From IMG/VR virus record IMGVR_UViG_3300025647_000214, positions 1 to 27,320 of that record: a stretch of DNA of 27,320 bases. One strand, written 5' to 3'. This DNA is from a virus (Duplodnaviria > Caudoviricetes). A program made the translations under genes and the position numbers. The notes below the pieces were generated by a model that was not told where the DNA came from, ran no database searches, and saw only the letters and a list, made by a program, of their open reading frames with translations. Below are positions 6,411-27,320 of the stretch, in pieces. The stretch's first letter is position 1; each line of letters begins with the position of its first letter.

Positions 6411-6781
6411 GCACAAGTACCTTTTTAGGGATGACACTACTGGCAAATGGGCTGGCTAATTATGTGCTGGCCAATGAGTATTTCGATACATTAGAGAAAG
6501 CATCTTCAGGCCGGATCACGGTAGACTTCACCTCAGATGCAGACCTAACGCTAACGGCCGATCAAGGGTTCCACAAAGTGCTCGCGATTACAGATTCAAC
6601 CGTAGCATTAACCACGGGGCGTGACGTTATCTTTCCCACTAAAGGCCCAGAGCGAATCATCAAGAACTCAACAGCCCAAACGCTCACCCTTAAAATAACA
6701 GGGCAAACCGGCGTAGCAATTTTAGCCTCGACAGTAGGTCGTTATTATTATGATGGGACTGATATTGTTGCGGCTCCTTAG
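6407..6781 (+). CDS. Small tail-associated beta-rich protein (124 aa)
   Basis: ATGA coupling to the tail-tip stop; Thr-rich 'IIKNSTAQTLTLK...G.GV.I...YYDGTDIV'. Confidence 0.6.
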   Translation: MSTSTFLGMTLLANGLANYVLANEYFDTLEKASSGRITVDFTSDADLTLTADQGFHKVLAITDSTVALTTGRDVIFPTKGPERIIKNSTAQTLTLKITGQTGVAILASTVGRYYYDGTDIVAAP

Positions 6782-6993
6782 TTATCTCTGGGTTAAGGGT
6801 TAAAACTCAAGCATGGTTGCTAGGCGTATATCGCGTGGCACCAGCCTTGATAGAGACAGGCAACCACCATCTTCTTGGTACCAAACTTTATTGCTACACC
6901 AGTACACCTTGGCCCATCCCTGCTTAGCGTCGTAGTGGCACCAGAACCTATAATATAAATCCATGACCGGTTATCTCTGGGTTAAGGGTTAAA
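6781..6993. repeat. Perfect 24-bp direct repeat GTTATCTCTGGGTTAAGGGTTAAA (6781-6804 and 6970-6993)
   Basis: Two identical copies read directly; they flank a small ORF. Confidence 0.95.
6800..6964 (-). CDS. Hypothetical 54-aa aromatic-rich protein (MDLYYRFWCHYDAKQG...LATMLEF)
   Basis: Manually translated; it fills the space between the two 24-bp repeats and its TAA lies in the left repeat. Confidence 0.55.
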   Translation of the reverse strand: MDLYYRFWCHYDAKQGWAKVYWCSNKVWYQEDGGCLSLSRLVPRDIRLATMLEF

Positions 6994-7125
6994 GGTAGTG
7001 GGTAGAACCGCAATGCTTATTCCGCTTACTTTTCATTTCTGGCAAAGACCCTTTCAGAGCTTCAACATGAATTGAGTTATCAATCGGCATAGACATACTT
7101 GCCAGTAAGTTGTCAATTCGGTCAA
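6989..7125 (-). pseudogene. 5'-truncated paralog of the 8310-8525 cassette gene
   Basis: Reads DRIDNLLASMSMPIDNSIHVEALKGSLPEMK...; 7056-7125 is identical to 8392-8461. Confidence 0.7.
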
Positions 7126-7334
7126 ATGGTGTGTTCGCCACCTTTGTAGCCGGTGAAGGTTGCACCTAGGGCACTCTTCGCATGTTCTAGCATTTCTCCA
7201 AAGGTCACGTTTTCTTTTGGCGCGAATGCAATTTCATCATAATATCCACGATAGCTGTCAGGTTCCCCGAACCCGTGAGGCACGGTTAACTCAGGGTTTT
7301 GTTGCTCTAGCCACTTAATCAAATCTTCAAGCAT
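7122..7334 (-). pseudogene. Small phage protein, probably C-terminally truncated
   Basis: Good RBS (AAGGAGAG); 'GFGEPDSYRGYYDEIAF.P...TFTGYKGG'; stop falls exactly at the edge of the 70-bp duplicated segment. Confidence 0.55.
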
Positions 7335-7360: not shown

Positions 7361-7408
7361 CACTAACAACGCAAAGCACGGGATAAACCCGTGTTCGCAG
7401 GGTTATGG
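7361..7408 (+). repeat. attC site A1 (48 bp, very short)
   Basis: CACTAAC AACGC AAAGCACG GGATAAACC CGTGTTC GCAGG GTTATGG. Confidence 0.75.
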
Positions 7409-7552
7409 CTCAAACCTTTCAAAGTCCTGCGCCATCTTTCCAAATTTGCCAGTTGCAATAGTGTAATAATGCTTTCCTGCATAGTGTTGCAGCCATCGCA
7501 GTTTCCTTGCAATTCGTCGGTGTGGTGAAAAATAATCAAGCAGTTTTTGCAT
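7403..7552 (-). CDS. Hypothetical 49-aa cassette protein
   Basis: GAGGA RBS before ATG at 7552; TAA inside the A1 R' box. Confidence 0.6.
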   Translation of the reverse strand: MQKLLDYFSPHRRIARKLRWLQHYAGKHYYTIATGKFGKMAQDFERFEP

Positions 7553-7847
7553 TACGGTAATCCTCTTTTGCTTTGCTTCTTTTGCAAACTGGGCAATAGC
7601 CTTTTTTAGTGTTCCTGATTTTGCATCCGCATTTTCTACAAGGCACTGAATTGTAGTATTCCTCGCCAATGATTCTGGCGGTTTCTGCATCCATGTTTAT
7701 TGGGTCGCGGACGGGATGTGTCAATGCGGTTTCAATATTCCAGCCAGAGTTTAATCTCCGCGCTAACGTTTGCCGCTTCATTCTATATTCGCGCGCCCAT
7801 TCACAAAGCAGCATCTCCCTTTCATCAAAATAAATTAGTCGTCTCAT
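7536..7847 (-). CDS. Protein resembling the DNA-binding tail of phage HNH proteins plus a Cys (Zn) motif
   Basis: 'EWAREYRMKRQTLARRLNSGWNIETALTHP' and CxxC...CxxC; no HNH catalytic motif seen. Confidence 0.6.
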   Translation of the reverse strand: MRRLIYFDEREMLLCEWAREYRMKRQTLARRLNSGWNIETALTHPVRDPINMDAETARIIGEEYYNSVPCRKCGCKIRNTKKGYCPVCKRSKAKEDYRNAKTA

Positions 7848-7856
7848 AGTAAAAAG

Positions 7857-7925
7857 CCATAACAACACGCTGCACTGGACTCACTACGCTGGCGCTTCGT
7901 TCGCGCAGTGAGCTTAGGGTTATAC
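7857..7925 (+). repeat. attC site A2 (69 bp)
   Basis: CCATAAC AACAC GCT[G]CACT...AGTGAGC TTAGG GTTATAC; L''/L' pair with one extra base. Confidence 0.92.
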
Positions 7926-8213
7926 AGCCAAGGCGGCTTCAATCAATTCCAAGACTTTGCCGTCTGCCTCTTTCCTGTCGCAATCTTCTACGCAGTCATA
8001 TTCATCTAGCTCACCGCTAATAACCCCTGCTTTTATCAGCGGCCTGTAAACGTCGTACTCCCACCCGCTATTGCCAAATGGTCGCTTTCCGCTGAAACAT
8101 TCCCCTTCTTTCCAGAGTTCTGTTAGTAGTAGTTTGAAATATCCTGCTATTGTAAGGTCTTTGTCAAAATCGCTACTTTCAATCTTCAGTTTCAATATTT
8201 CTTTTGTTTCCAT
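7920..8213 (-). CDS. Conserved-looking phage hypothetical protein (cassette)
   Basis: GAGGTGA RBS; 'LWKEGECFSGKRPFGNSGWEYD'; TAA in the A2 R' box. Confidence 0.8.
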   Translation of the reverse strand: METKEILKLKIESSDFDKDLTIAGYFKLLLTELWKEGECFSGKRPFGNSGWEYDVYRPLIKAGVISGELDEYDCVEDCDRKEADGKVLELIEAALAV

Positions 8214-8228
8214 AACTCACCTCAAAAT

Positions 8229-8315
8229 GTATAACCAGTCGCTTCAGTGGAAGCCGAGAACGTCCGGTTTTCAATAGTCACTCAGTGGCGGCTCCACTGA
8301 GCTAATTCGTTATAT
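8229..8315 (+). repeat. attC site A3 (87 bp)
   Basis: GTATAAC CAGTC GCT[T]CAGTGGA...TCCACTGAGC TAATTC GTTATAT. Confidence 0.9.
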
Positions 8316-8525
8316 GCCCCACACATCCACACCGCCCAGCTCAAAGTAAGCCTGTATTAGCGGACCTTTCATCTCCGGTAATGCCTCTTTTAGAGCTTCA
8401 ACATGAATTGAGTTATCAATCGGCATAGACATACTTGCCAGTAAGTTGTCAATTCGGTCAACTTGCAGTGCAATGTCTTCAAGCGCGCATTCTTTGTTTT
8501 CTTCGAGTGTTCCGCCGTAGTTCAT
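8310..8525 (-). CDS. Hypothetical cassette protein (71 aa from ATG 8525)
   Basis: AGGA RBS; TAA in the A3 R' box; partial paralog at 6989-7125. Confidence 0.7.
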   Translation of the reverse strand: MNYGGTLEENKECALEDIALQVDRIDNLLASMSMPIDNSIHVEALKEALPEMKGPLIQAYFELGGVDVWGI

Positions 8526-8552
8526 AGTGGTTTTCCTATTTAAATTGGTTTT

Positions 8553-8610
8553 GCATATATAATTCATTATTTATAAAACTCCGCTAAGTTCGGTTAATAA
8601 CGTGTTATAT
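8553..8610 (+). repeat. Degenerate, AT-rich attC-like site A4
   Basis: GCATATA(T) where GCATATAAC is expected; R' GTTATAT intact and complementary to the A5 R''. Confidence 0.55.
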
Positions 8611-8799
8611 TTCATTGCCTTTAAATTCTGATTTAAGCAGCCTTACAGCAAAGTCCAGCGCTTTAATCATGTCCTTCGGTGTATCCCCTTCTAATTCGAT
8701 TCTTTGGTGTCGATCATTATCCCAAGCAATGTGGATAGCCTCTTTACAACCAATATCGGCCAAGTCTCGTTCAATCCAGATCCTTTTCAGTTTTGCCAT
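8605..8799 (-). CDS. Hypothetical cassette protein (64 aa)
   Basis: GAGGTGA RBS; TAA in the A4 R' box. Confidence 0.75.
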   Translation of the reverse strand: MAKLKRIWIERDLADIGCKEAIHIAWDNDRHQRIELEGDTPKDMIKALDFAVRLLKSEFKGNEI

Positions 8800-8813
8800 A
8801 AATCACCTCAAAA

Positions 8814-8886
8814 ATATAACAAGCGCATTAACGCGGACACTCATTCCGCTGCGCTCCATTCGTTCCGGTTATGCTGGTCGTTATGA
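8814..8886 (+). repeat. attC site A5 (73 bp)
   Basis: ATATAAC AAGC GCAT[T]AAC[G]CGGA...TCCGGTTATGC TGGTC GTTATGA; two extrahelical bases. Confidence 0.92.
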
Positions 8887-9081
8887 CTCAAGCCGTTCTT
8901 TAACCCGAAACCATTCCGCAAGCTGCTCCTTGTTGTACCGCCTTGCGTTGTCATTAAGTGGGCCACCAATACAATAAATTTGCCCGAGCGCCCTGTCTAT
9001 CCTGCCCTGCAACTCAATTGTCAGCAGTTTCAATTCGGCAATTTCTTTTGCCTGCCGCGCTATCAGTTCTGCATCCGTCAT
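8881..9081 (-). CDS. Hypothetical cassette protein (66 aa, 'CIGGPLNDN' motif)
   Basis: ATG lies in the A6 R'' box, RBS in the A6 L'' box, TAA in the A5 R' box. Confidence 0.8.
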   Translation of the reverse strand: MTDAELIARQAKEIAELKLLTIELQGRIDRALGQIYCIGGPLNDNARRYNKEQLAEWFRVKERLES

Positions 9082-9137
9082 AACAGTTTCCTCAATTTTG
9101 ACTCCGCTTCGCTACGCAAATTAGGTAGCGGTTAGTG
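9078..9137 (+). repeat. attC site A6 (60 bp)
   Basis: TCATAAC AGTTT CCT[C]AATT...AATTAGG TAGCG GTTAGTG. Confidence 0.88.
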
Positions 9138-9371
9138 TGCCCACCAATCCCCTTCATAGGGTGGCCAGCCCTCCTCATCAAGCACAATCCCAGCTTGTTC
9201 ATAGTGCCCGCATCGACAATATTGCTGCGCCGTTTTTAGTCCAACCAAACCAGACACCTCCCAGTGCCCGCTCTCCATTGTGTCCTGTACCCACCACCGC
9301 ACACGAAACAGATCAGGCACACTAACTTTTTCGCCTTCTGCTGGTTCAGTTTGTTCGTTCACGTTTGTCAT
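9132..9371 (-). CDS. Hypothetical cassette protein (79 aa)
   Basis: GAGGA RBS; TAA in the A6 R' box; N-terminus encoded within degenerate site A7. Confidence 0.7.
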   Translation of the reverse strand: MTNVNEQTEPAEGEKVSVPDLFRVRWWVQDTMESGHWEVSGLVGLKTAQQYCRCGHYEQAGIVLDEEGWPPYEGDWWAH

Positions 9372-9430
9372 GGTTTCAATTCCTCATTACCGTTAGAAAG
9401 GTAAATTACCTCTGAATCGCAGTGTTAGCT
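9320..9430 (+). repeat. Degenerate attC-like site A7
   Basis: R'' (GGCA)CACTAAC and R' GTTAGCT both match the neighbouring cores, but L boxes are not clearly paired. Confidence 0.5.
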
Positions 9431-9754
9431 GTTTTCTGCTTTGTACAGCTCATAGCAGCTAGATTTTGTCCAATAATAAATGCCATCAACTTGCGTGTAG
9501 CCATGAGCACCTTCTGGGGCCAAAAAGTCTGATGATCTCACTCTAAACCCGGCCTTGTTTTGCTTTATTTCTGGGTCAAGCTCCATGGGCCCAAGGTTTC
9601 CCCACTCCTCACAATGCAGTCTAACCGGGCTTTGCTTCTCTTTCGGCAGCCAGGTTTCTCCGCCCAATATATATCTAATACCCTTTGGCGGCTGTGGCTC
9701 AATCACAGCTAACAAGTCGCTCAACACGGACTCACTACAATTCGTTTCACTCAT
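9425..9754 (-). CDS. Hypothetical cassette protein (109 aa)
   Basis: RBS, ATG and the first ~16 codons lie inside A8; TAA in the A7 R' box. Confidence 0.75.
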   Translation of the reverse strand: MSETNCSESVLSDLLAVIEPQPPKGIRYILGGETWLPKEKQSPVRLHCEEWGNLGPMELDPEIKQNKAGFRVRSSDFLAPEGAHGYTQVDGIYYWTKSSCYELYKAENS

Positions 9755-9784
9755 TTCCGTTCTCCGGTTAGCTCAGGGTTATGC
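9707..9784 (+). repeat. attC site A8 (78 bp)
   Basis: AGCTAAC AAGTC GCT[C]AAC[A]CGGA...TCCGGTTAGC TCAGG GTTATGC. Confidence 0.92.
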
Positions 9785-9868
9785 CGGTTACGTCTCCGGC
9801 GCAGAATCCGCTCTGCCGTGGCTGTAGGCAACGCGCCCGCTGTGCGGTGCTGGGGTCATCGGCCAACA

Positions 9869-10087
9869 CTACCTGCTAATTCCAATATGGTCATTGGCTT
9901 CGGCCAGGCACGCTCTCCAATGTTTGCGGTCATCAGGGGAGCATGTGCGCAGATTTTCTTCGGCCAACGATTTTCTTTCCACCCAATCAACTGTCGGGGT
10001 TTTCGAGTGCGGGTCTACTGCTTCGCAATAATCCAGACACTCACAATCTGGGTGTATGCATTTGTCTATCATGTCTGTCTCCGGCAT
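9869..10087 (-). CDS. Hypothetical Cys-rich cassette protein (72 aa)
   Basis: ATG in the A9 R'' box; 'CIHPDCECLDYC'. Confidence 0.6.
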   Translation of the reverse strand: MPETDMIDKCIHPDCECLDYCEAVDPHSKTPTVDWVERKSLAEENLRTCSPDDRKHWRACLAEANDHIGISR

Positions 10088-10143
10088 AACAATTCACAGC
10101 ACGCGGACTCCGCTACGCTCCGCCCGTGTGCTCAGGGTTATGC
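10084..10143 (+). repeat. attC site A9 (60 bp)
   Basis: GCATAAC AATTC ACA[G]CACG[C]GG...CCCGTGTGC TCAGG GTTATGC. Confidence 0.88.
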
Positions 10144-10374
10144 GCTCTCCTGGCTAACCTTTATCGTGTATTCCAGAGTACCATCGGGCCTTCGTATCTC
10201 AATTGCCTTACCCGTCTTCTCACCAAAATGAACTGCATGTTCCGCAACAGCAACCAGCGCTTCAATCGTCACATCCTGTTTGTTCGCTCCCCATGTTCGA
10301 CCGTCTTTCAAAACTGTTCCTACAAAAATAGTTCCGGTGAGCGGGCTTGTTGCTACGTGTAAATTTCTGTTCAT
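10138..10374 (-). CDS. Small conserved phage protein ('SPLTGTIF.G...K.DVT')
   Basis: Motif common in phage early regions; TAA in the A9 R' box. Confidence 0.75.
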   Translation of the reverse strand: MNRNLHVATSPLTGTIFVGTVLKDGRTWGANKQDVTIEALVAVAEHAVHFGEKTGKAIEIRRPDGTLEYTIKVSQESA

Positions 10375-13543: not shown

Positions 13544-13585
13544 ATATTAGTTTAGCTAATTATATTAGTCAATAGTTTTACTAAT
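13544..13585 (-). promoter_or_regulatory. PL promoter with two operators (OL)
   Basis: TTGACT-17bp-TAATAT on the minus strand; operators ATTAGTTTAGCTAAT (13546-13560) and AATAGTTTTACTAAT (13571-13585). Confidence 0.85.
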
Positions 13586-13647: not shown

Positions 13648-13800
13648 ATGATAAGGAAATATTTGTTGTTAGTGCTGGCGGTTTCTTTCCCATGTGTGGG
13701 GGAGGAGGCTGATTTGTTGCATAGAGGGCGCTGGAGAATTAACCAGGCAATCCAAGGTCTGCGTTACGCCCATTTCTCCACCAAGGCTCTCTTGCGATAG
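13648..13800 (+). pseudogene. N-terminal remnant of a secreted protein convergent on cI
   Basis: GAGGG RBS; MIRKYLLLVLAVSFPCVGEEAD signal-peptide-like start, running into cI antisense at about 13755. Confidence 0.45.
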
Positions 13801-13899
13801 ACCGGGATCGGACTTTTTGGCCGCGAGGTAGTGGCGCTTAATAAAAGCCCCTTCGCGTTTTTTCTCTTCTGTGGTCGTGCCACGCTTAGTTGTCGTCAT
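13669..13899 (-). pseudogene. cI: Truncated lambda CI-like repressor
   Basis: MTTTKRGTTTEEKKREGAFIKRHYLAAKKSDPGLSQESLGGEMGVTQ resembles the lambda CI N-terminus; similarity stops at the recognition helix; no S24 domain. Confidence 0.8.
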
Positions 13900-13909
13900 G
13901 TCTCTCATT

Positions 13910-13976
13910 ATTAGCCAACCTAATATACTATTCAATTAGCAAAACTATTGACGACCTTAATTAGTTAAACTAATAT
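13910..13976 (+). promoter_or_regulatory. OR region: three 15-bp operators and PR
   Basis: ATTAG-N5-CTAAT/CTATT at 13910, 13935 and 13960 (25-bp period); PR TTGACG-17bp-TAATAT (13948-13976). Confidence 0.88.
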
Positions 13977-15410: not shown

Positions 15411-15517
15411 GCTGGTCAGAATACGAGAGAGAAAAGGCCCGTCTGGTTCGTCTTAATCTTCCCTATGAAGTGTATCAGGCAGCTATCAAAGAACTCCTAG
15501 CGAGGCTTAAATTGTGA
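15407..15517 (+). CDS. 36-aa small phage protein (MSWSEYEREKARL...)
   Basis: Translationally coupled at both ends (ATGA, GTGA). Confidence 0.6.
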   Translation: MSWSEYEREKARLVRLNLPYEVYQAAIKELLARLKL

Positions 15518-16248
15518 AGTGGTACAAACACGATGCAAACGCCAACGCTGATGCAAAACTTAAAAAGCTAAGAATTAAATATGGCATGGAAGGTTACGGC
15601 CTGTATTGGTATTGCCTTGAATTAATTTGTGATGGTATTGATGAAAGCAATATTAACTTCGATTTAGAACACGACTCAGAAATCATTTCACATGACACCG
15701 GCATCCACTACGAGCGGGTTCAAGAAATGATGTCATATATGGTTAAACTTGAATTATTCGAGATGAATCAAGGGGTTGTGACTTGCATGAAGATGGCTAA
15801 ACGTCTTGATAAGTCGATGACAAGCAATCCAAAAATGCGACAGTTAATTGATAAAATCAGAAACAATCATGCTGAAGTCATGATCCCGTCATGTGTTAGT
15901 CATGACTCAGTCATGCAAGATAAGACTAGACTAGATAAGAATAAACACACTACGCCTTCGGCTCCGTCATGTCCCTATCAGGACATTGTCGATGTGTATC
16001 ACGAAATATTACCTAACTTGCCAGAAGTAAAAATCCTTTCTGATAAACGAAAAAAATATCTTAAGTCTCGATGGCTTGGTTCTAAGGCTGCCCAAGAGGT
16101 TGGATGGTGGCGGGATTATTTCGAGAAGGTTTCACAGTCAGATTTTTTAATGGGTAGAACTGAAAATAAATTCCAAGCCAATTTTGAATGGCTGATTACC
16201 GAAAGTAATTTTATCAAAGTGTTGGAAGGTAACTATGAGCGCGGCTGA
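15514..16248 (+). CDS. Replication initiator (DUF4373/Lin1244-like N-terminus)
   Basis: 'WYKHD.NA..D.KLKKLR.KYGMEGYGLYW', C-terminal 'SDFLMG...ANFEWLI...NF.KVLEGNY'; precedes DnaB. Confidence 0.85.
   Translation: MKWYKHDANANADAKLKKLRIKYGMEGYGLYWYCLELICDGIDESNINFDLEHDSEIISHDTGIHYERVQEMMSYMVKLELFEMNQGVVTCMKMAKRLDKSMTSNPKMRQLIDKIRNNHAEVMIPSCVSHDSVMQDKTRLDKNKHTTPSAPSCPYQDIVDVYHEILPNLPEVKILSDKRKKYLKSRWLGSKAAQEVGWWRDYFEKVSQSDFLMGRTENKFQANFEWLITESNFIKVLEGNYERG
15867..15945. other. Putative replication origin (iterons plus A-rich tract)
   Basis: TCATG at 15867, 15878, 15889, 15900 and 15911 (exact 11-bp period), then GATAAGACTAGACTAGATAAGAATAAA, inside the initiator gene. Confidence 0.7.
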
Positions 16249-21400: not shown

Positions 21401-22036
21401 ATGTCAATAGCTGCTATTCACCTCCATGGATATAACGTTGAAGATTACAGAAACAGTTCCGGCCAGATAGACCAAGCCTTTAAGAATGCAGGCATAGACT
21501 CTCGTGTTCTGGTTTATCACGCCGATAATGTGCGCGAAGCCAGAGAGATGAACGCTGACACAGCACACAGGCTATCAACACTGATTCACTATTTTCAAGA
21601 GAGGGGCCACACCGTCATTGTGACTGCCCATTCTAACGGCAATACCGTTATGCGGCTGTGCTACGACCTTTATCAAACTAGTCCCGATATCGCGGTGTGT
21701 ATTCAGCCCGCTTTACCTTCAGCCATGAACCCAGCACCAGATGCCAAGCATGTCGCTGTTTACTGGAATCCAGAAGATAGGGTGGTGAAGCTAGGAAAAT
21801 TTTTAACCTGGATTACTGGACTGTTTTCCTCTAAGTGGGTAGCGGAACGAAATTGGGGCCAAATGGGAGCAACAGGATATGTGGGAAGCGATAAAAATGT
21901 GGACAACATTAACACGCTGGACGCTCACCACCCCCGTAGAGCTGGTGGCCATAGCGGTATATTTGATCAGCGGGTTGCGGGTTACTGGATGAGCCTTATC
22001 ACGAAAGATGCTTTCGAGAGGGCCGCCCAGTTATGA
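21401..22036 (+). CDS. Alpha/beta hydrolase
   Basis: 'HLHGYN' oxyanion motif, AHSNG nucleophile elbow, 'NPEDRVV' Asp, 'GHS' His. Confidence 0.75.
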   Translation: MSIAAIHLHGYNVEDYRNSSGQIDQAFKNAGIDSRVLVYHADNVREAREMNADTAHRLSTLIHYFQERGHTVIVTAHSNGNTVMRLCYDLYQTSPDIAVCIQPALPSAMNPAPDAKHVAVYWNPEDRVVKLGKFLTWITGLFSSKWVAERNWGQMGATGYVGSDKNVDNINTLDAHHPRRAGGHSGIFDQRVAGYWMSLITKDAFERAAQL

Positions 22037-24540
22037 GGCTAATTTTTACCTGCTTGTTACTCCTGTCATTTGCTGTGTCTGCCGAGGTAGAGCAGTCTTG
22101 GCCTAACCTCATTATTGCTGACGAGGGTGGCGTGCCTATTGACGGCGTTCCGGGGTCTACAACGCGGGTGAACGCACTTGAGAAGGTGTTGAACCTTCCC
22201 TATGGGACTTACAAAGTTATCCGGCCTGACGCAACTATCACAACGTCAGAAGATGTGGTCATTCCACCAGTTGTCGAACCACCAGTTGTTGAGCCGCCTA
22301 TAGAGCCGCCTATAGAGCCGCCAGCAGAGCCGCCTATTGTTACACCAACAGATGATATTTCAGTGGTTTACAGCCGTGTTCCCCGCACTGTTGGGCCTCA
22401 TACCGTTGCCACTAAAACGGGCGAGTTGGTTTTAAACAACGCCGAAGTGTGGGATGTATTACCCGAGGTTGCTACCCAGTTCTACGGCTTTAATGCGCCC
22501 GGTCAGTTGATGTTGCAGCATTCAGATGACAGTGAAGAATTACTATACGACTGCTTTGATAAAGCCCGACCCTGTGTGCCGTTTGATGCTATGCCATCAC
22601 TGGATGGTAAACACATAGCCTTTGCTGTGTACAGTGCCGACAACCTTGTGAACGCGTGGAGCAATGGGGTTACCTTACCCAACGTTCAATTGGGCAGTCA
22701 GAATGCCGACTCCCGCATTTATGTTATTAACGTTGAAACAAAAGAATTAATCGCTTGGCCTCATACGCCTGGGGATAGAGATACCAGCCCTGTCTGGTTG
22801 CCTGATGGTCGGCTCATGTTTACCAGCACACGCAATGGGCAATGGCGACCTTGGTTAAACAAAATTACACCGATGGCCAAGCAAGACCCCCGGTTGTTTA
22901 CGGCCTTGCCCGATGGCTCGGATGTAGTGGATATAAGCCCACACGAGGTGGGTGGGGCCATGCACCCCTTTGTATTCTCCAATGGGCGTGTTGGATATAA
23001 CTCATTGTGGTATAGCCACAACCTGACCTATGTTGGCAATAATGGCAGTATTAATTGGCCTACCACATTAAATAATATGTGGATGATGGCTGATATTCTC
23101 CAAGATGGATCAGATTATAAAGCCCTGTTGGGCGGTCATAAAAACGCCTATCGAGATTCCAGAGGCAGAACCAAAACCCAGAAAGCCCTGCATTTTATTG
23201 GGCAGAGAGAGAATGGGGATGCTTGCATAGGTAGTTATTACCGAGCCAACAATCATGGATTAGGTGATATAGCTTGTTTCCCTTTCGAGCCTGCCGGTGT
23301 AGAAGGCCCAGCCCCGGACTTTTTGCCTACAGGCATTTACAGTGTCGCGTCTTGGAGTAAGTCAAACGATGAGCCAAGCCGCAAAGATGCTAACGGTGTG
23401 CGTCAGGGCAAGATTGGGTTCCCCGATGGTTACGCGGATAACCAGCTCCTATTAACTGTTTGCAGCGGCTACTGTACCAAGGTGGCGACGTCCCCGCCGT
23501 TTATTGATGGGCAGGTAGGTGATGATATTGGCTCAAGTATAGGGCTGTATAAAACCACAGTGATTCCTAGCGAAAACATGGACGATTTAGAGGTGGTTGT
23601 TGATCACCCTGATTGGCATGAATTCAATGGTCGAATAGTTAGGCCGAGAGTTATTCAAACAGCCGCGCTATCGCAGACAGATGACGGGTCATGTCAAGTG
23701 ATCAGTTCAGATGCCGGGGCCACAGATGCCCACGACTTTAACGACTCATCGTTTAATCGCCGATACCGCGCAATGGCGAATAATGGCGGCGAGATTAAGG
23801 GCTTAGACCATTCAGAGGTTCAAGCTATTCGGTTTTATGAAGTATTGCCGAATCTCGACAAAAGCCCAGACTTTAAGAACTCCATTGGTAACGTTGTGAA
23901 ATTACTGGGGGATGCCCCTTTATTGGCTGACAACTCTTTCAAGGTTGAGCTACCTTGTGATATGCCGTACCTCATGGCCGGTGTGGACAAAGACGGTTTA
24001 ATTATTAAGCGCGATCAATTGCCTCAGTCATTAAGACCGGGTGAAAAGCGAGTGTGTACTGGATGCCATTTGCATGGTGAAGAGGGTAGACCTTACGAGC
24101 AATCATTGGCGTTTGCCGCCCCACCTTTACCGTTGGTTTTGCCTACCGCTGTGCCTACGTTTGAAAAAGACATTAAGCCCATATTCGAGGGTAAATGTGC
24201 TGGGTGCCATACCGTCGATTTGCCGGTTTTAGACTATGACAAACTGGTGTGGGATTACCTGCAAGAGTTTGTGCCAGATGACAGAAAGCATGTAGCAGAA
24301 AACACCACCAACCTGAAGAAAAAATACGGGTTACAGCGCCCTAATACCAGCAAGTATGTGAATACGATGTTTGCGCGTGAAAGCCTGCTGTATTGGAAAG
24401 CTGCGAACAAAAGAACGGACGGCAGGACAGATGACACTTATGCTGATGATATTGATTTTGGTGTAGATCACCCAACAACCCTGACGGCTATAGAGCTAAG
24501 AGCTGTGGGCGAATGGTTAGATGGTGGAGCGGCTAGATAG
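22033..24540 (+). CDS. Secreted HzsA-related beta-propeller protein with two c-type heme motifs
   Basis: Signal peptide, Pro-rich linker, PD40-like 'D.SPVWLPDGRLMFTSTR', 'LRPGEKRVCTGCH', 'KCAGCH'. Confidence 0.7.
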   Translation: MRLIFTCLLLLSFAVSAEVEQSWPNLIIADEGGVPIDGVPGSTTRVNALEKVLNLPYGTYKVIRPDATITTSEDVVIPPVVEPPVVEPPIEPPIEPPAEPPIVTPTDDISVVYSRVPRTVGPHTVATKTGELVLNNAEVWDVLPEVATQFYGFNAPGQLMLQHSDDSEELLYDCFDKARPCVPFDAMPSLDGKHIAFAVYSADNLVNAWSNGVTLPNVQLGSQNADSRIYVINVETKELIAWPHTPGDRDTSPVWLPDGRLMFTSTRNGQWRPWLNKITPMAKQDPRLFTALPDGSDVVDISPHEVGGAMHPFVFSNGRVGYNSLWYSHNLTYVGNNGSINWPTTLNNMWMMADILQDGSDYKALLGGHKNAYRDSRGRTKTQKALHFIGQRENGDACIGSYYRANNHGLGDIACFPFEPAGVEGPAPDFLPTGIYSVASWSKSNDEPSRKDANGVRQGKIGFPDGYADNQLLLTVCSGYCTKVATSPPFIDGQVGDDIGSSIGLYKTTVIPSENMDDLEVVVDHPDWHEFNGRIVRPRVIQTAALSQTDDGSCQVISSDAGATDAHDFNDSSFNRRYRAMANNGGEIKGLDHSEVQAIRFYEVLPNLDKSPDFKNSIGNVVKLLGDAPLLADNSFKVELPCDMPYLMAGVDKDGLIIKRDQLPQSLRPGEKRVCTGCHLHGEEGRPYEQSLAFAAPPLPLVLPTAVPTFEKDIKPIFEGKCAGCHTVDLPVLDYDKLVWDYLQEFVPDDRKHVAENTTNLKKKYGLQRPNTSKYVNTMFARESLLYWKAANKRTDGRTDDTYADDIDFGVDHPTTLTAIELRAVGEWLDGGAAR
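22255..22341 (+). repeat. Pro-rich coding tandem repeats (PPVVE/PPIE)
   Basis: Repeated CCACCAGTTGT and GAGCCGCCTATA units. Confidence 0.85.
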
Positions 24541-26028
24541 ATGGCTATTAGCTTTGATGGGAACAGCTCAAAGGTAGTCATAGACACTAGCACTGTCCTT
24601 GAGAACACAAACCCTTACGCTCTTAATTTCAAGATCCAAATTACTGATACTAATTCAGTGTATGAGCGCTGCCTAAGTTACCGTGAAGGGTCGCGGGGGT
24701 TTATGGTCATCCAAGAGGATGACAAGCTGTTCATCATACCGAACGGAACAAATGCTACTACATGGGGCAGAGACGTAGATACAGGCTCTTGTATCGTTTT
24801 GCTCGGCCTTAGCACTGCTACATGGTACAACGTTACCGTAAACTTCTCTGGTGGCGCAGACAACATTCAATCCAATGCTACTGTCTGGTTAGATGGCGTT
24901 GCGGTTACCGAGGATGGAACGGGTAGCCTGAATGGAGGTAGTGGCGCAGGATATGGTTCTGGTACCGACACCAATACATTACACCTTGGGGCTAGATCTG
25001 CCTCAGGATCAACCATTTCGGTTCCCGGCGATTGTATTCTTGCTGAAGTTACGATGTGGGAAAACCACGCCCTAACTATAGCGGACGCGGTTAGTCTAGC
25101 TGCGGGTAATAGTGGTAGTACTGTTGACGCCGCCAACTTAGCAATCCATTACCAAGGCTTAGATAACACCGATACAACTGAGACAGTTAACAGTAAAACG
25201 GTTACGTTTTATGGCACGGTAGTGGATGCCACCCATCCAACTATGGCGGGTGGTGTTGCAGATATTACTGCAACAGGTGGAATGTCTTTTGGTTCATCAG
25301 CAGGTCTAAACGCAACAGGCAAGCTGGCAGGCTCATCGAGCCTATCATTCGGCTCAAGTGCCGACATTAACGCTACAGGAATATTAGGCGGATCAGCCAG
25401 CCTGTCATTTGGCTCTAGTGCTGGATTAAACGGCATAGGGTCGCTACAGGTGAGCGATTTAATATCCTTTGGATCATCTGCTGATTTAAATGCGGTAGGG
25501 ACACTATCAGGGACAAGCGTTCTCACGTTTAGTGGAACAGGCGCATTAAACGCTGCAGGCACATTAAGTGCTACCAGTTCAATCGCTTTCTCCACAAGTG
25601 CTGAATTATCGACATCCGGCGCTTATGAATTAACGGGAACGGCGACACTCTCTTTCTCTGCTGCTGCCAGCTTAAATGCTACAGGTAAATTAACGGGCAG
25701 TGCGGGATTGGCTTTTGCTGATTCTGCCTCATTAACAGGGGCCGGAACTCTAGCCGCTTCCTCGGTTATCACGTTTGGAAGCTCTGCCGATTTATCCCAA
25801 GCCTCACAAGACGCAATAAGCGCCACTGTAGGGCTGTCGTTTGGCACATCAGCAACATTAAACGCTACAGGCGCTATGACCGCTGTTGGCTCTCTCACGC
25901 TGTCTACATCCGCTGATCTTACACAGCCTGGAATAGCGCCAGCTTATCCCGGACTTGAATACACAATGGGCGGCTCACGCCTTCACTACACCATGAGCGG
26001 AAGCCCGCTTCATTACACCATCAAATAG
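24541..26028 (+). CDS. LamG/ConA-like domain plus ~20-aa Gly/Ser/Ala repeats (fibre/adhesin-like)
   Basis: 'ISFDG...WYNVTV...WLDGV...LHLGAR...AEVTMWENHALT', then about 11 repeats like ATGKLAGSSSLSFGSSADIN. Confidence 0.7.
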   Translation: MAISFDGNSSKVVIDTSTVLENTNPYALNFKIQITDTNSVYERCLSYREGSRGFMVIQEDDKLFIIPNGTNATTWGRDVDTGSCIVLLGLSTATWYNVTVNFSGGADNIQSNATVWLDGVAVTEDGTGSLNGGSGAGYGSGTDTNTLHLGARSASGSTISVPGDCILAEVTMWENHALTIADAVSLAAGNSGSTVDAANLAIHYQGLDNTDTTETVNSKTVTFYGTVVDATHPTMAGGVADITATGGMSFGSSAGLNATGKLAGSSSLSFGSSADINATGILGGSASLSFGSSAGLNGIGSLQVSDLISFGSSADLNAVGTLSGTSVLTFSGTGALNAAGTLSATSSIAFSTSAELSTSGAYELTGTATLSFSAAASLNATGKLTGSAGLAFADSASLTGAGTLAASSVITFGSSADLSQASQDAISATVGLSFGTSATLNATGAMTAVGSLTLSTSADLTQPGIAPAYPGLEYTMGGSRLHYTMSGSPLHYTIK

Positions 26029-27257: not shown

Positions 27258-27320
27258 TGCACCAATACAGTGCAAATCAAAAGGTACTGTCCAGAGTTAT
27301 CCATCACGGGTACGAAGGCG

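Follow-up and report, generated by a model that had tools for sequence, protein, structure and literature searches.

The linear viral contig IMGVR_UViG_3300025647_000214 (G000), which at 27,320 nucleotides (nt) and an estimated completeness of ~65% constitutes the whole of the window analyzed here, carries between positions 7361 and 10143 an array of attC sites, the recombination sites of integron gene cassettes, in which the genes run against the attC top strands and end inside the R' box. This inverted array is real and exceeds what chance would give, and it belongs to a phage-type variant of the integron cassette that is widespread. Integron cassettes have been regarded as belonging to bacteria, with a fixed strand that permits expression from the integron promoter, Pc. 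Clusters of attC sites in phages are already known (Qi et al., 2023, PMC9892861), and, measured against the available text of that study, the inversion of the genes is the new part.

An Array of Inverted Cassettes

A geometric scan for attC sites (TAAC, 5 nt, an 8-nt L'' box with its bulge at position 4, a 7-nt L' box, 5-6 nt, GTT; at least 6/7 L pairs) found seven intact sites on the + strand and none on the - strand between positions 6700 and 10500. Chance expectation, estimated from 300 simulated sequences, is a mean of 0.007 and a maximum of 1, though in long sequence the scan yields occasional false sites, including one on the - strand at 2702 and several in phage PH101. The consensus of the attC boxes is RYYYAAC for R'' and GTTRRRY for R'. 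In the seven intact sites the AAC/GTT core is exact, the outer bases are off consensus (GTTATGG and the like) and the spacers measure 5-6 nt. An initial annotation of this DNA had counted nine sites; seven are intact, and the two whose R' boxes lie at 8604 and 9424 have decayed.

7361..7408, + strand, attC site A: 48 nt; 6/7 L pairs, left-arm bulge; left end of its own cassette lost
7857..7925, + strand, attC site B: found by the scan; R'' pairs with R' at 7402 over 9 nt
8229..8315, + strand, attC site C: found by the scan; R'' pairs with R' at 7919 over 8 nt
8557..8610, + strand, decayed attC site D: right arm and R' (8604) recognizable; R'' altered; fails the scan
8814..8886, + strand, attC site E: found by the scan; R'' pairs with R' at 8604 over 9 nt
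9078..9137, + strand, attC site F: found by the scan; bottom strand holds the GAGG ribosome-binding motif and ATG of gene 8881-9081
9320..9430, + strand, decayed attC site F2: R' at 9424; R'' pairs with R' at 9131 over 11 nt
9707..9784, + strand, attC site G: found by the scan; R' at 9778
10084..10143, + strand, attC site H: found by the scan; right end of the array; R'' pairs with R' at 9778 over 10 nt

In seven units the boxes on either side of the gene, R' at its left and R'' at its right, are reverse complements over 8-11 nt, as is expected from entry of each unit as a circular intermediate (G↓TT below marks the crossover). Bottom-strand folds of the sites, whether constrained or free, differ from site to site. 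With seven sites in 2.8 kb and no adjoining intI in G000, the array is a cluster of attC sites lacking integron-integrase (CALIN) in the sense of Qi et al. (2023), who asked for at least two attC sites within 3 kb; a complete integron, by comparison, has intI.

The TTA of R' is the stop codon of a minus-strand open reading frame (ORF) at each of the eight positions that had been listed (7403, 7920, 8310, 8605, 8881, 9132, 9425, and 10138; ORFs of 64-109 amino acids), against only 2 of 38 other GTTA motifs between 6800 and 13500, one of these two (6988) lying at the left end of the array. The broader statement that all genes end inside R' is correct for eight of nine, as the TAA of the ninth R' (9778) is in frame with a 72-amino acid gene in which two in-frame stops come earlier. 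The genes are as follows.

7403..7552, - strand, 49-amino acid ORF: stop in R' of A; open to 7690; no family match
7536..7868, - strand, ORF weakly matching an HNH-endonuclease phage family (phrog_3377, E 3e-7): same cassette as 7403-7552
7920..8213, - strand, 97-amino acid cassette gene: stop in R' of B; phrog_15618, E 1e-18
8310..8567, - strand, cassette gene: stop in R' of C; likely start 8525
8605..8799, - strand, 64-amino acid cassette gene: stop in R' of D; only identical copies among its matches
8881..9081, - strand, 66-amino acid cassette gene: begins in R'' of F and stops in R' of E; 151 homologs
9132..9371, - strand, 79-amino acid cassette gene: starts within F2; homologous cassette in viral locus L044
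9425..9754, - strand, 109-amino acid cassette gene: starts within G; 128 homologs
9869..10087, - strand, 72-amino acid cassette gene: starts in R'' of H; stops short of the R' TAA of G
10138..10374, - strand, DUF7446/phrog_1578 gene: stop in R' of H; no upstream attC in the window

Every array ORF with homologs is on the bottom strand, contrary to the top-strand orientation of canonical cassette genes, and the coding evidence likewise falls there and not on the + strand ORFs. Four genes in or beside the array match PHROG families, in agreement with the earlier view of the cargo as small phage early genes. The stop at 7403 probably belongs to the 49-amino acid gene, which has its own ribosome-binding site and would be the second gene of a two-gene cassette. 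Not every gene can be called a cassette from the window itself: the geometric scan found no partner to the right of the R' of site H, so the gene at 10138-10374 is not demonstrated as a cassette here, although the same DUF7446 gene forms a complete inverted cassette in loci L006 and L061.

Polarity of the Unit and Translation Starts

The left-arm bulge produced by the 8/7 asymmetry of the L boxes lies on the + strand in all seven intact sites, which assigns the top strand to + as the initial annotation had it; the extrahelical top-strand base is G in three, T in two, and C in two. Flank complementarity was dropped as a test of polarity; it is symmetric between the strands, and polarity was therefore judged by which hairpin moves with the gene. 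In three different viral contigs (L049, L075, and L054) the homology of one cassette starts at its left G↓TT, spans the inverted gene and the right-hand attC, and stops at G↓TT, and the left-hand attCs are unrelated. Similarly, the window cassette at 9131-9430 matches L044 from G↓TT to R'', and F2 is a relative of the intact right-hand site of L044 from which L'' has been lost by an in-frame deletion (85 to 79 amino acids). Because it is the right-hand hairpin that is shared with the gene in both comparisons, the unit reads as a standard cassette in + polarity with its gene reversed, and the boundaries of homologous cassettes thus give the same polarity independently of the bulge.

Four sites (F, G, H, and F2) themselves hold a start codon. 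Specifically, the minus strand of site F supplies gene 8881-9081 with a GAGG motif and its ATG, that of site G contributes GGAG, ATG, and the first ~13 codons of gene 9425-9754, and that of site H places an ATG within R''. Among 119 homologs of the gene that starts in site G, the alignment begins at residue 14 in 76 and at residue 1 in three, and most of the homologs listed have their own Met right at the residue-14 alignment start; here site G has taken the place of the natural start of gene 9425-9754. A ribosome-binding motif with ATG is present in the bottom strand of 51/197 viral and 8/181 bacterial sites, and a rough call of start placement in 50 viral inverted cassettes puts 11 starts within the site and 39 just beyond it. 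In addition, many small phage proteins carry N- or C-terminal tails resembling attC bottom-strand translations (L044 2785-3042, L033, L074; P0013, P0159), and such tails could reveal inverted cassettes from protein data alone.

Inverted Cassettes in Viral and Bacterial Genomes

One left-arm motif derived from the window was scanned in viral contigs and in GTDB genomes, yielding 125 viral loci out of ~140 stretches and 132 GTDB loci, a sample of ~2400, with long flanks taken for 80 viral and 80 bacterial loci. Strand was called from the longest ORF contained between consecutive sites, earlier calls from the longest ORF in the flank having been too noisy for small phage genes. Twins of the window (L001, L004, L005, L065, and L097) were removed from the counts, L097 only starting with the segment, contig, and R'-stop counts.

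The longest ORF is inverted in 79/100 viral inter-attC segments as compared to 16/112 bacterial ones (p=4e-22), a difference that supports the earlier proposal of a distinct phage cassette pool, and the inverted ORF stops in R' in 51 of the 79 viral but 3 of the 16 bacterial segments. By contig, 29 of 37 viral contigs score as inverted, 6 as canonical, and 2 as tied, while the 21 bacterial contigs divide into 2 inverted, 18 canonical, and 1 tied (viral versus bacterial, p=1e-7). By site, a bottom-strand ORF of at least 40 amino acids stops in R' at 101/169 viral and 22/151 bacterial sites, whereas a top-strand ORF stops in R'' at 29/169 viral and 58/151 bacterial sites; canonical genes, said earlier to end usually at or near R'', thus do so often rather than usually, with an exact R'' end at those 58 of 151 bacterial sites. 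In 70 viral segments with at least 6 nt of flank complementarity, PHROG matches were obtained for 20/68 bottom-strand ORFs and 0/55 top-strand ORFs, and the matched inverted cargo includes DNA methyltransferases and PAPS-reductase-like proteins.

Integron Integrases in Phages

A first scan for the integron integrase (IntI), using a single protein query, returned 2 IntI-like and 36 unrelated recombinase loci. An alignment-based scan subsequently confirmed 529 tyrosine-recombinase relatives, of which the best 80, those closest to that IntI, were analyzed together with L272. Of the 76 sites that were scanned around these 81 viral IntI-like loci, 69 are placed upstream of intI with normal polarity, and at 31 of the 69 an ORF on the intI strand stops in R'. 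The TIGR02249 cut-off for IntI was passed by 17 of 17 tested viral proteins (chosen mostly for nearby sites), and in many viral loci a GTT-containing attI-like site is visible by eye within ~90 nt of the intI start. Two of 40 array-bearing viral records encode IntI above the cut-off, both at the attI end, and in these two, as in bacteria, intI points away from the attC top strand, which places it downstream of the inverted genes and in the same orientation. Clear complete inverted arrays are those of L271, L328, and L329. Judged by family cut-off and layout, true IntI occurs in phages with the inverted arrangement, and most arrays, that of the window included, are without it.

Several temperate-type phages (L272 4998-5972, L323, L324, L325, and L329) encode IntI where the early-left operon ends (in L272, directly before the phage integrase), and a conserved attI-like motif is common to these five and L265. 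A different arrangement is seen in Rctr41k (L309, KX853513; 4680-10100), where an IntI-like gene annotated as xerD is followed by canonical cassettes on the same strand; Rctr41k is absent from the phages tabulated in the accessible text of Qi et al. (2023).

Phage Context, Expression, and Replication

PHROG matches give the window a lambda-like gene order. Tail genes on the + strand extend up to 6781; a leftward block on the - strand, running from ~13500 to 6800, holds small genes and HNH, SSB, Gam-like, and recombination genes; and rightward + strand genes follow (Cro-like, O-like initiator, DnaB, NinB, NinG, Q-like, holin, and endolysin). The attC array occupies the distal end of the leftward block, with both of its flanks present in the contig. 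In lambda, int is located at the corresponding far end of the early-left block. A search for tyrosine recombinases (PF00589) across G000, itself 65% complete, found none. The repressor-like ORF at the cI position (13669-13935, - strand) encodes only 88 amino acids and, since the early-left operon is also not followed by an integrase, lysogeny may have been lost in this phage.

13544..13585, - strand, candidate PL promoter: TTGACT-17-TAATAT, flanked by two operator-like palindromes

Two copies of an operator-like palindrome lie at 13546-13585 and three more at 13910-13974, in the interval that separates the repressor-like gene from the Cro-like gene; the five copies, from which the operator pattern was itself defined, are spaced 25 nt and arranged as OL and OR. 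Minus-strand ORFs are nearly gapless from 13511 to the array. Judged by layout alone, namely the operator repeats, promoter-like site, and contiguous ORFs, read-through from PL across the array is likely, while the arrangement expected for Pc is not found, the genes facing the opposite way.

The replication origin of lambda lies within the O gene. If the origin likewise lies in the O-like gene at 15514-16248, the minus strand would be the lagging template for the leftward fork, and the recombinogenic bottom strand would therefore be placed on the lagging template with the genes co-directional with the fork. According to the portion available of a previous study, placing the bottom strand on the lagging template raises cassette excision (PMC5371416).

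State of the Array

The array of the window is partly frozen, with two decayed sites and a scrambled left end.

6781..7334, no strand assigned, scrambled left end: repeats, a bare G↓TTA ORF end, and a duplication

Direct repeats of 24 nt at 6781-6804 and 6970-6993 look like an attC right arm with a second GTTA after it, and bracket a 189-nt unit with a 54-amino acid ORF; in the first copy the G is that of the tail gene's TAG. The ORF at 6800-6964 has its TAA stop in a bare G↓TTA. An attI role for the repeat is not supported, and the bare G↓TTA sites at 6799 and 6988 are by eye unlike the sites upstream of phage intI genes. A 98-nt duplication, in which 7028-7125 copies 8364-8461 (92%), part of one cassette gene, is fused into and truncates the gene at 7122-7334, and the duplicated stretch shows double depth in DNA runs.

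Further records of the same phage carry an identical or nearly identical array. In freshwater DNA runs X1-X4, a contig ~6-10x deeper carries site E, with one mismatch, and the genes flanking it there are different ones. Just past R'', the bottom strand of this contig holds a ribosome-binding motif and ATG, which suggests that the same site E serves other inverted genes nearby. Relatives identified by the recombination gene (L315-L317) have no array, hence cassette gain or loss was not seen among them, and the assembled contigs of four DNA runs (two samples at most) contain no cassette-skipping joint, which is not evidence in either direction given that contigs drop rare variants. Searches of annotated phages for DNA similar to the array, site G, or site H found none, and an Rfam search of the window gave no match.

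Proposed Explanation and Alternatives

The explanation held to be probable is that cassettes are inserted by IntI acting in trans and expressed from PL as inverted genes within a lambda-like early-left operon. Cassettes would enter one at a time, the IntI responsible for the array of the window coming from the host, from a co-infecting phage, or from a gene since lost. Each unit consists of G↓TT(A), the inverted gene, R''/L''/L', and G↓TT, such that the cassette supplies the TAA stop at the crossover and an attC at the 5' end of the gene, and transcription would proceed by read-through from PL. Inversion would be favored because the genes then join the phage transcript while the polarity of attC relative to intI remains normal, and also, should the origin lie in the O-like gene, by the placement of the recombinogenic bottom strand on the lagging-strand template. 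A broader reading, for and against which the balance is even, is that tailed phages possess an integron branch of their own, with phage-encoded IntI, a compact attI closing an early operon, and a common pool of inverted cassettes built from phage genes, where the stop comes from the crossover and the start from attC; integrase-less phages would draw on this pool in trans, and the exchanged start of 9425-9754 would record the making of a cassette.

Several observations weigh against insertion by IntI in trans with expression from PL. No tyrosine recombinase was found in the 65%-complete G000, and IntI is absent from 38 of 40 array-bearing viral records. Beside viral IntI, a top-strand ORF ends in R'' at 15 of the 69 sites, and the segments of 16 such loci divide into 22 inverted and 12 canonical. 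Canonical phage arrays exist, namely those of TJE1 and Rctr41k along with the 6 of 37 viral contigs scored as canonical, and the survey behind that score relied on a window-derived motif, a noisy longest-ORF call, and related phages that are not independent. The DUF7446 gene stands beside unrelated upstream attCs in L006 and L061 and beside none in the window. The promoter scan that includes the candidate PL is at chance level overall (12 found, 11.7 expected), and no close relative with a differing cassette set was found.

Two alternatives accept that the units are, or once were, cassettes, and both are considered unlikely, to about the same degree. According to one, the same inverted cassettes are moved not by IntI but by a shorter, Xer-like phage recombinase, a notion for which a 278-amino acid non-IntI tyrosine recombinase ~2 kb past the array of L041, together with the failure to find IntI in G000, may be cited; yet the 8/7 bulge in the L boxes of the sites and their crossover at G↓TT are of the IntI type, phages with the same type of site encode IntI above the curated cut-off at the attI end, and Cury et al. 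(2016, PMC4889954), in the portion available, judged non-IntI recombinases near attC sites not to be integron integrases. The other holds that the sites are fossils, former IntI substrates in an array now altered by homologous or illegitimate recombination, with the hairpins kept as translation-start elements. The decay of 2 of 9 sites, one through an in-frame deletion that preserves the protein, a 98-nt duplication that breaks a gene away from any G↓TT, the identical arrays of other records, and the Gam-like, recombination-type, and SSB genes adjoining the array are all consistent with it, but seven sites retain 6-7 of 7 L pairs and 8-11 nt of flank complementarity, site E recurs with one mismatch among different genes, and RNA folds of the sites are mostly no better than those of shuffled sequences (z above -1.6 in 6/7).

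That ordinary bacterial cassettes were captured by the phage, the rare inverted ones being selected with no separate phage pool, is very improbable. Cassettes do insert at GWT genome sites either way round, as described in the available part of a preprint (10.1101/2022.09.11.507474), and the bacterial segments scored as inverted show that such cassettes exist; it is their much rarer ends in R', the match of the cargo to phage families, and the enrichment of bottom-strand start signals in viral sites that argue against this origin. Least credible of all is that the strand was mis-assigned, the top strand being - and the cassettes canonical. An attC site is nearly palindromic, so that flank complementarity cannot separate the strands, and only two of the seven intact sites have C as the bulged top base, but no left-arm bulge is found on the - strand of the array region, in bacteria this motif coincides with the strand of the gene, the attC polarity relative to intI is normal, and the 5' hairpin moves with the gene, the homology among L049, L075, and L054 already contradicting the reversed assignment. 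Insertion by IntI in trans with expression from PL is retained as the preferred explanation.

Relationship to Known Systems and Significance

Qi et al. (2023) described 17 phage CALINs, the cargo of which is small and often encodes DNA methyltransferases, and showed that five phage attC sites are recombined by IntI1 with the bottom strand preferred over the top; the accessible text contains no analysis of how genes are oriented with respect to attC, and describes TJE1 and PH101 as typical. The array of the window resembles these CALINs as a cluster of attC sites without intI in a phage genome with small cargo genes, and differs in that all of its genes are inverted, with stops at the crossover and, in some, starts within attC. 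On re-check, the TJE1 array is canonical. In PH101 the annotated genes run against the attC top strand and stop outside R' in every case, and there are also + strand ORFs without annotation; PH101 (L311) also contains, at 30900-33000, two duplicated blocks of attC plus flank, with converging + and - strand ORFs between sites.

With classical integrons, as set out in the available portion of Cury et al. (2016), the array shares attC box geometry, G↓TT boundaries, and R'/R'' complementarity, and the IntI-bearing phages share the polarity of attC to intI. Unlike in classical integrons, the gene is on the bottom strand, attC is at the 5' end of the gene, the stop is in R' instead of R'', and Pc is unneeded; complete phage versions have intI downstream of and co-oriented with the genes, and a new cassette at attI would therefore sit farthest from the promoter. 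The inverted-integrase integrons of the Treponema group, described in the same source, and Rctr41k likewise have intI and cassette genes on one strand, but there it is intI that is flipped relative to attC while the genes are canonical, whereas in inverted phage arrays intI is normal and the genes are flipped. Finally, in attG insertions and lone attC sites without an integron integrase (SALINs), IntI inserts cassettes at bare GWT sites, and such insertion could found an array without attI, the TAAC end of a gene being such a site on the other strand; the available part of that report describes these events for canonical cassettes in bacterial chromosomes, with no strand bias (10.1101/2022.09.11.507474). 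A full-text literature search, from whose reach most subscription papers fell outside, returned nothing on inverted phage cassettes or phage-native IntI arrays.

If correct, a phage-specific, mirror-image pool would allow accessory genes of phages, such as those encoding methyltransferases and small early proteins, to turn over by a site-specific route, and its cassettes would enter bacterial integrons facing away from Pc. It would also offer a handle on how cassettes are made, since non-cassette homologs of these genes give a reference against which to read the boundaries. Direct tests are feasible for strand preference, for excision, and for translation starts encoded by attC.

Elsewhere in the window, the stretch at 22033-26028 (+ strand), after the lysis genes, encodes an 835-amino acid protein with cytochrome-c-like CxxCH motifs and a repeat-rich protein of 495 amino acids. 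Both are without a PHROG match, and they are odd cargo for a phage late operon.

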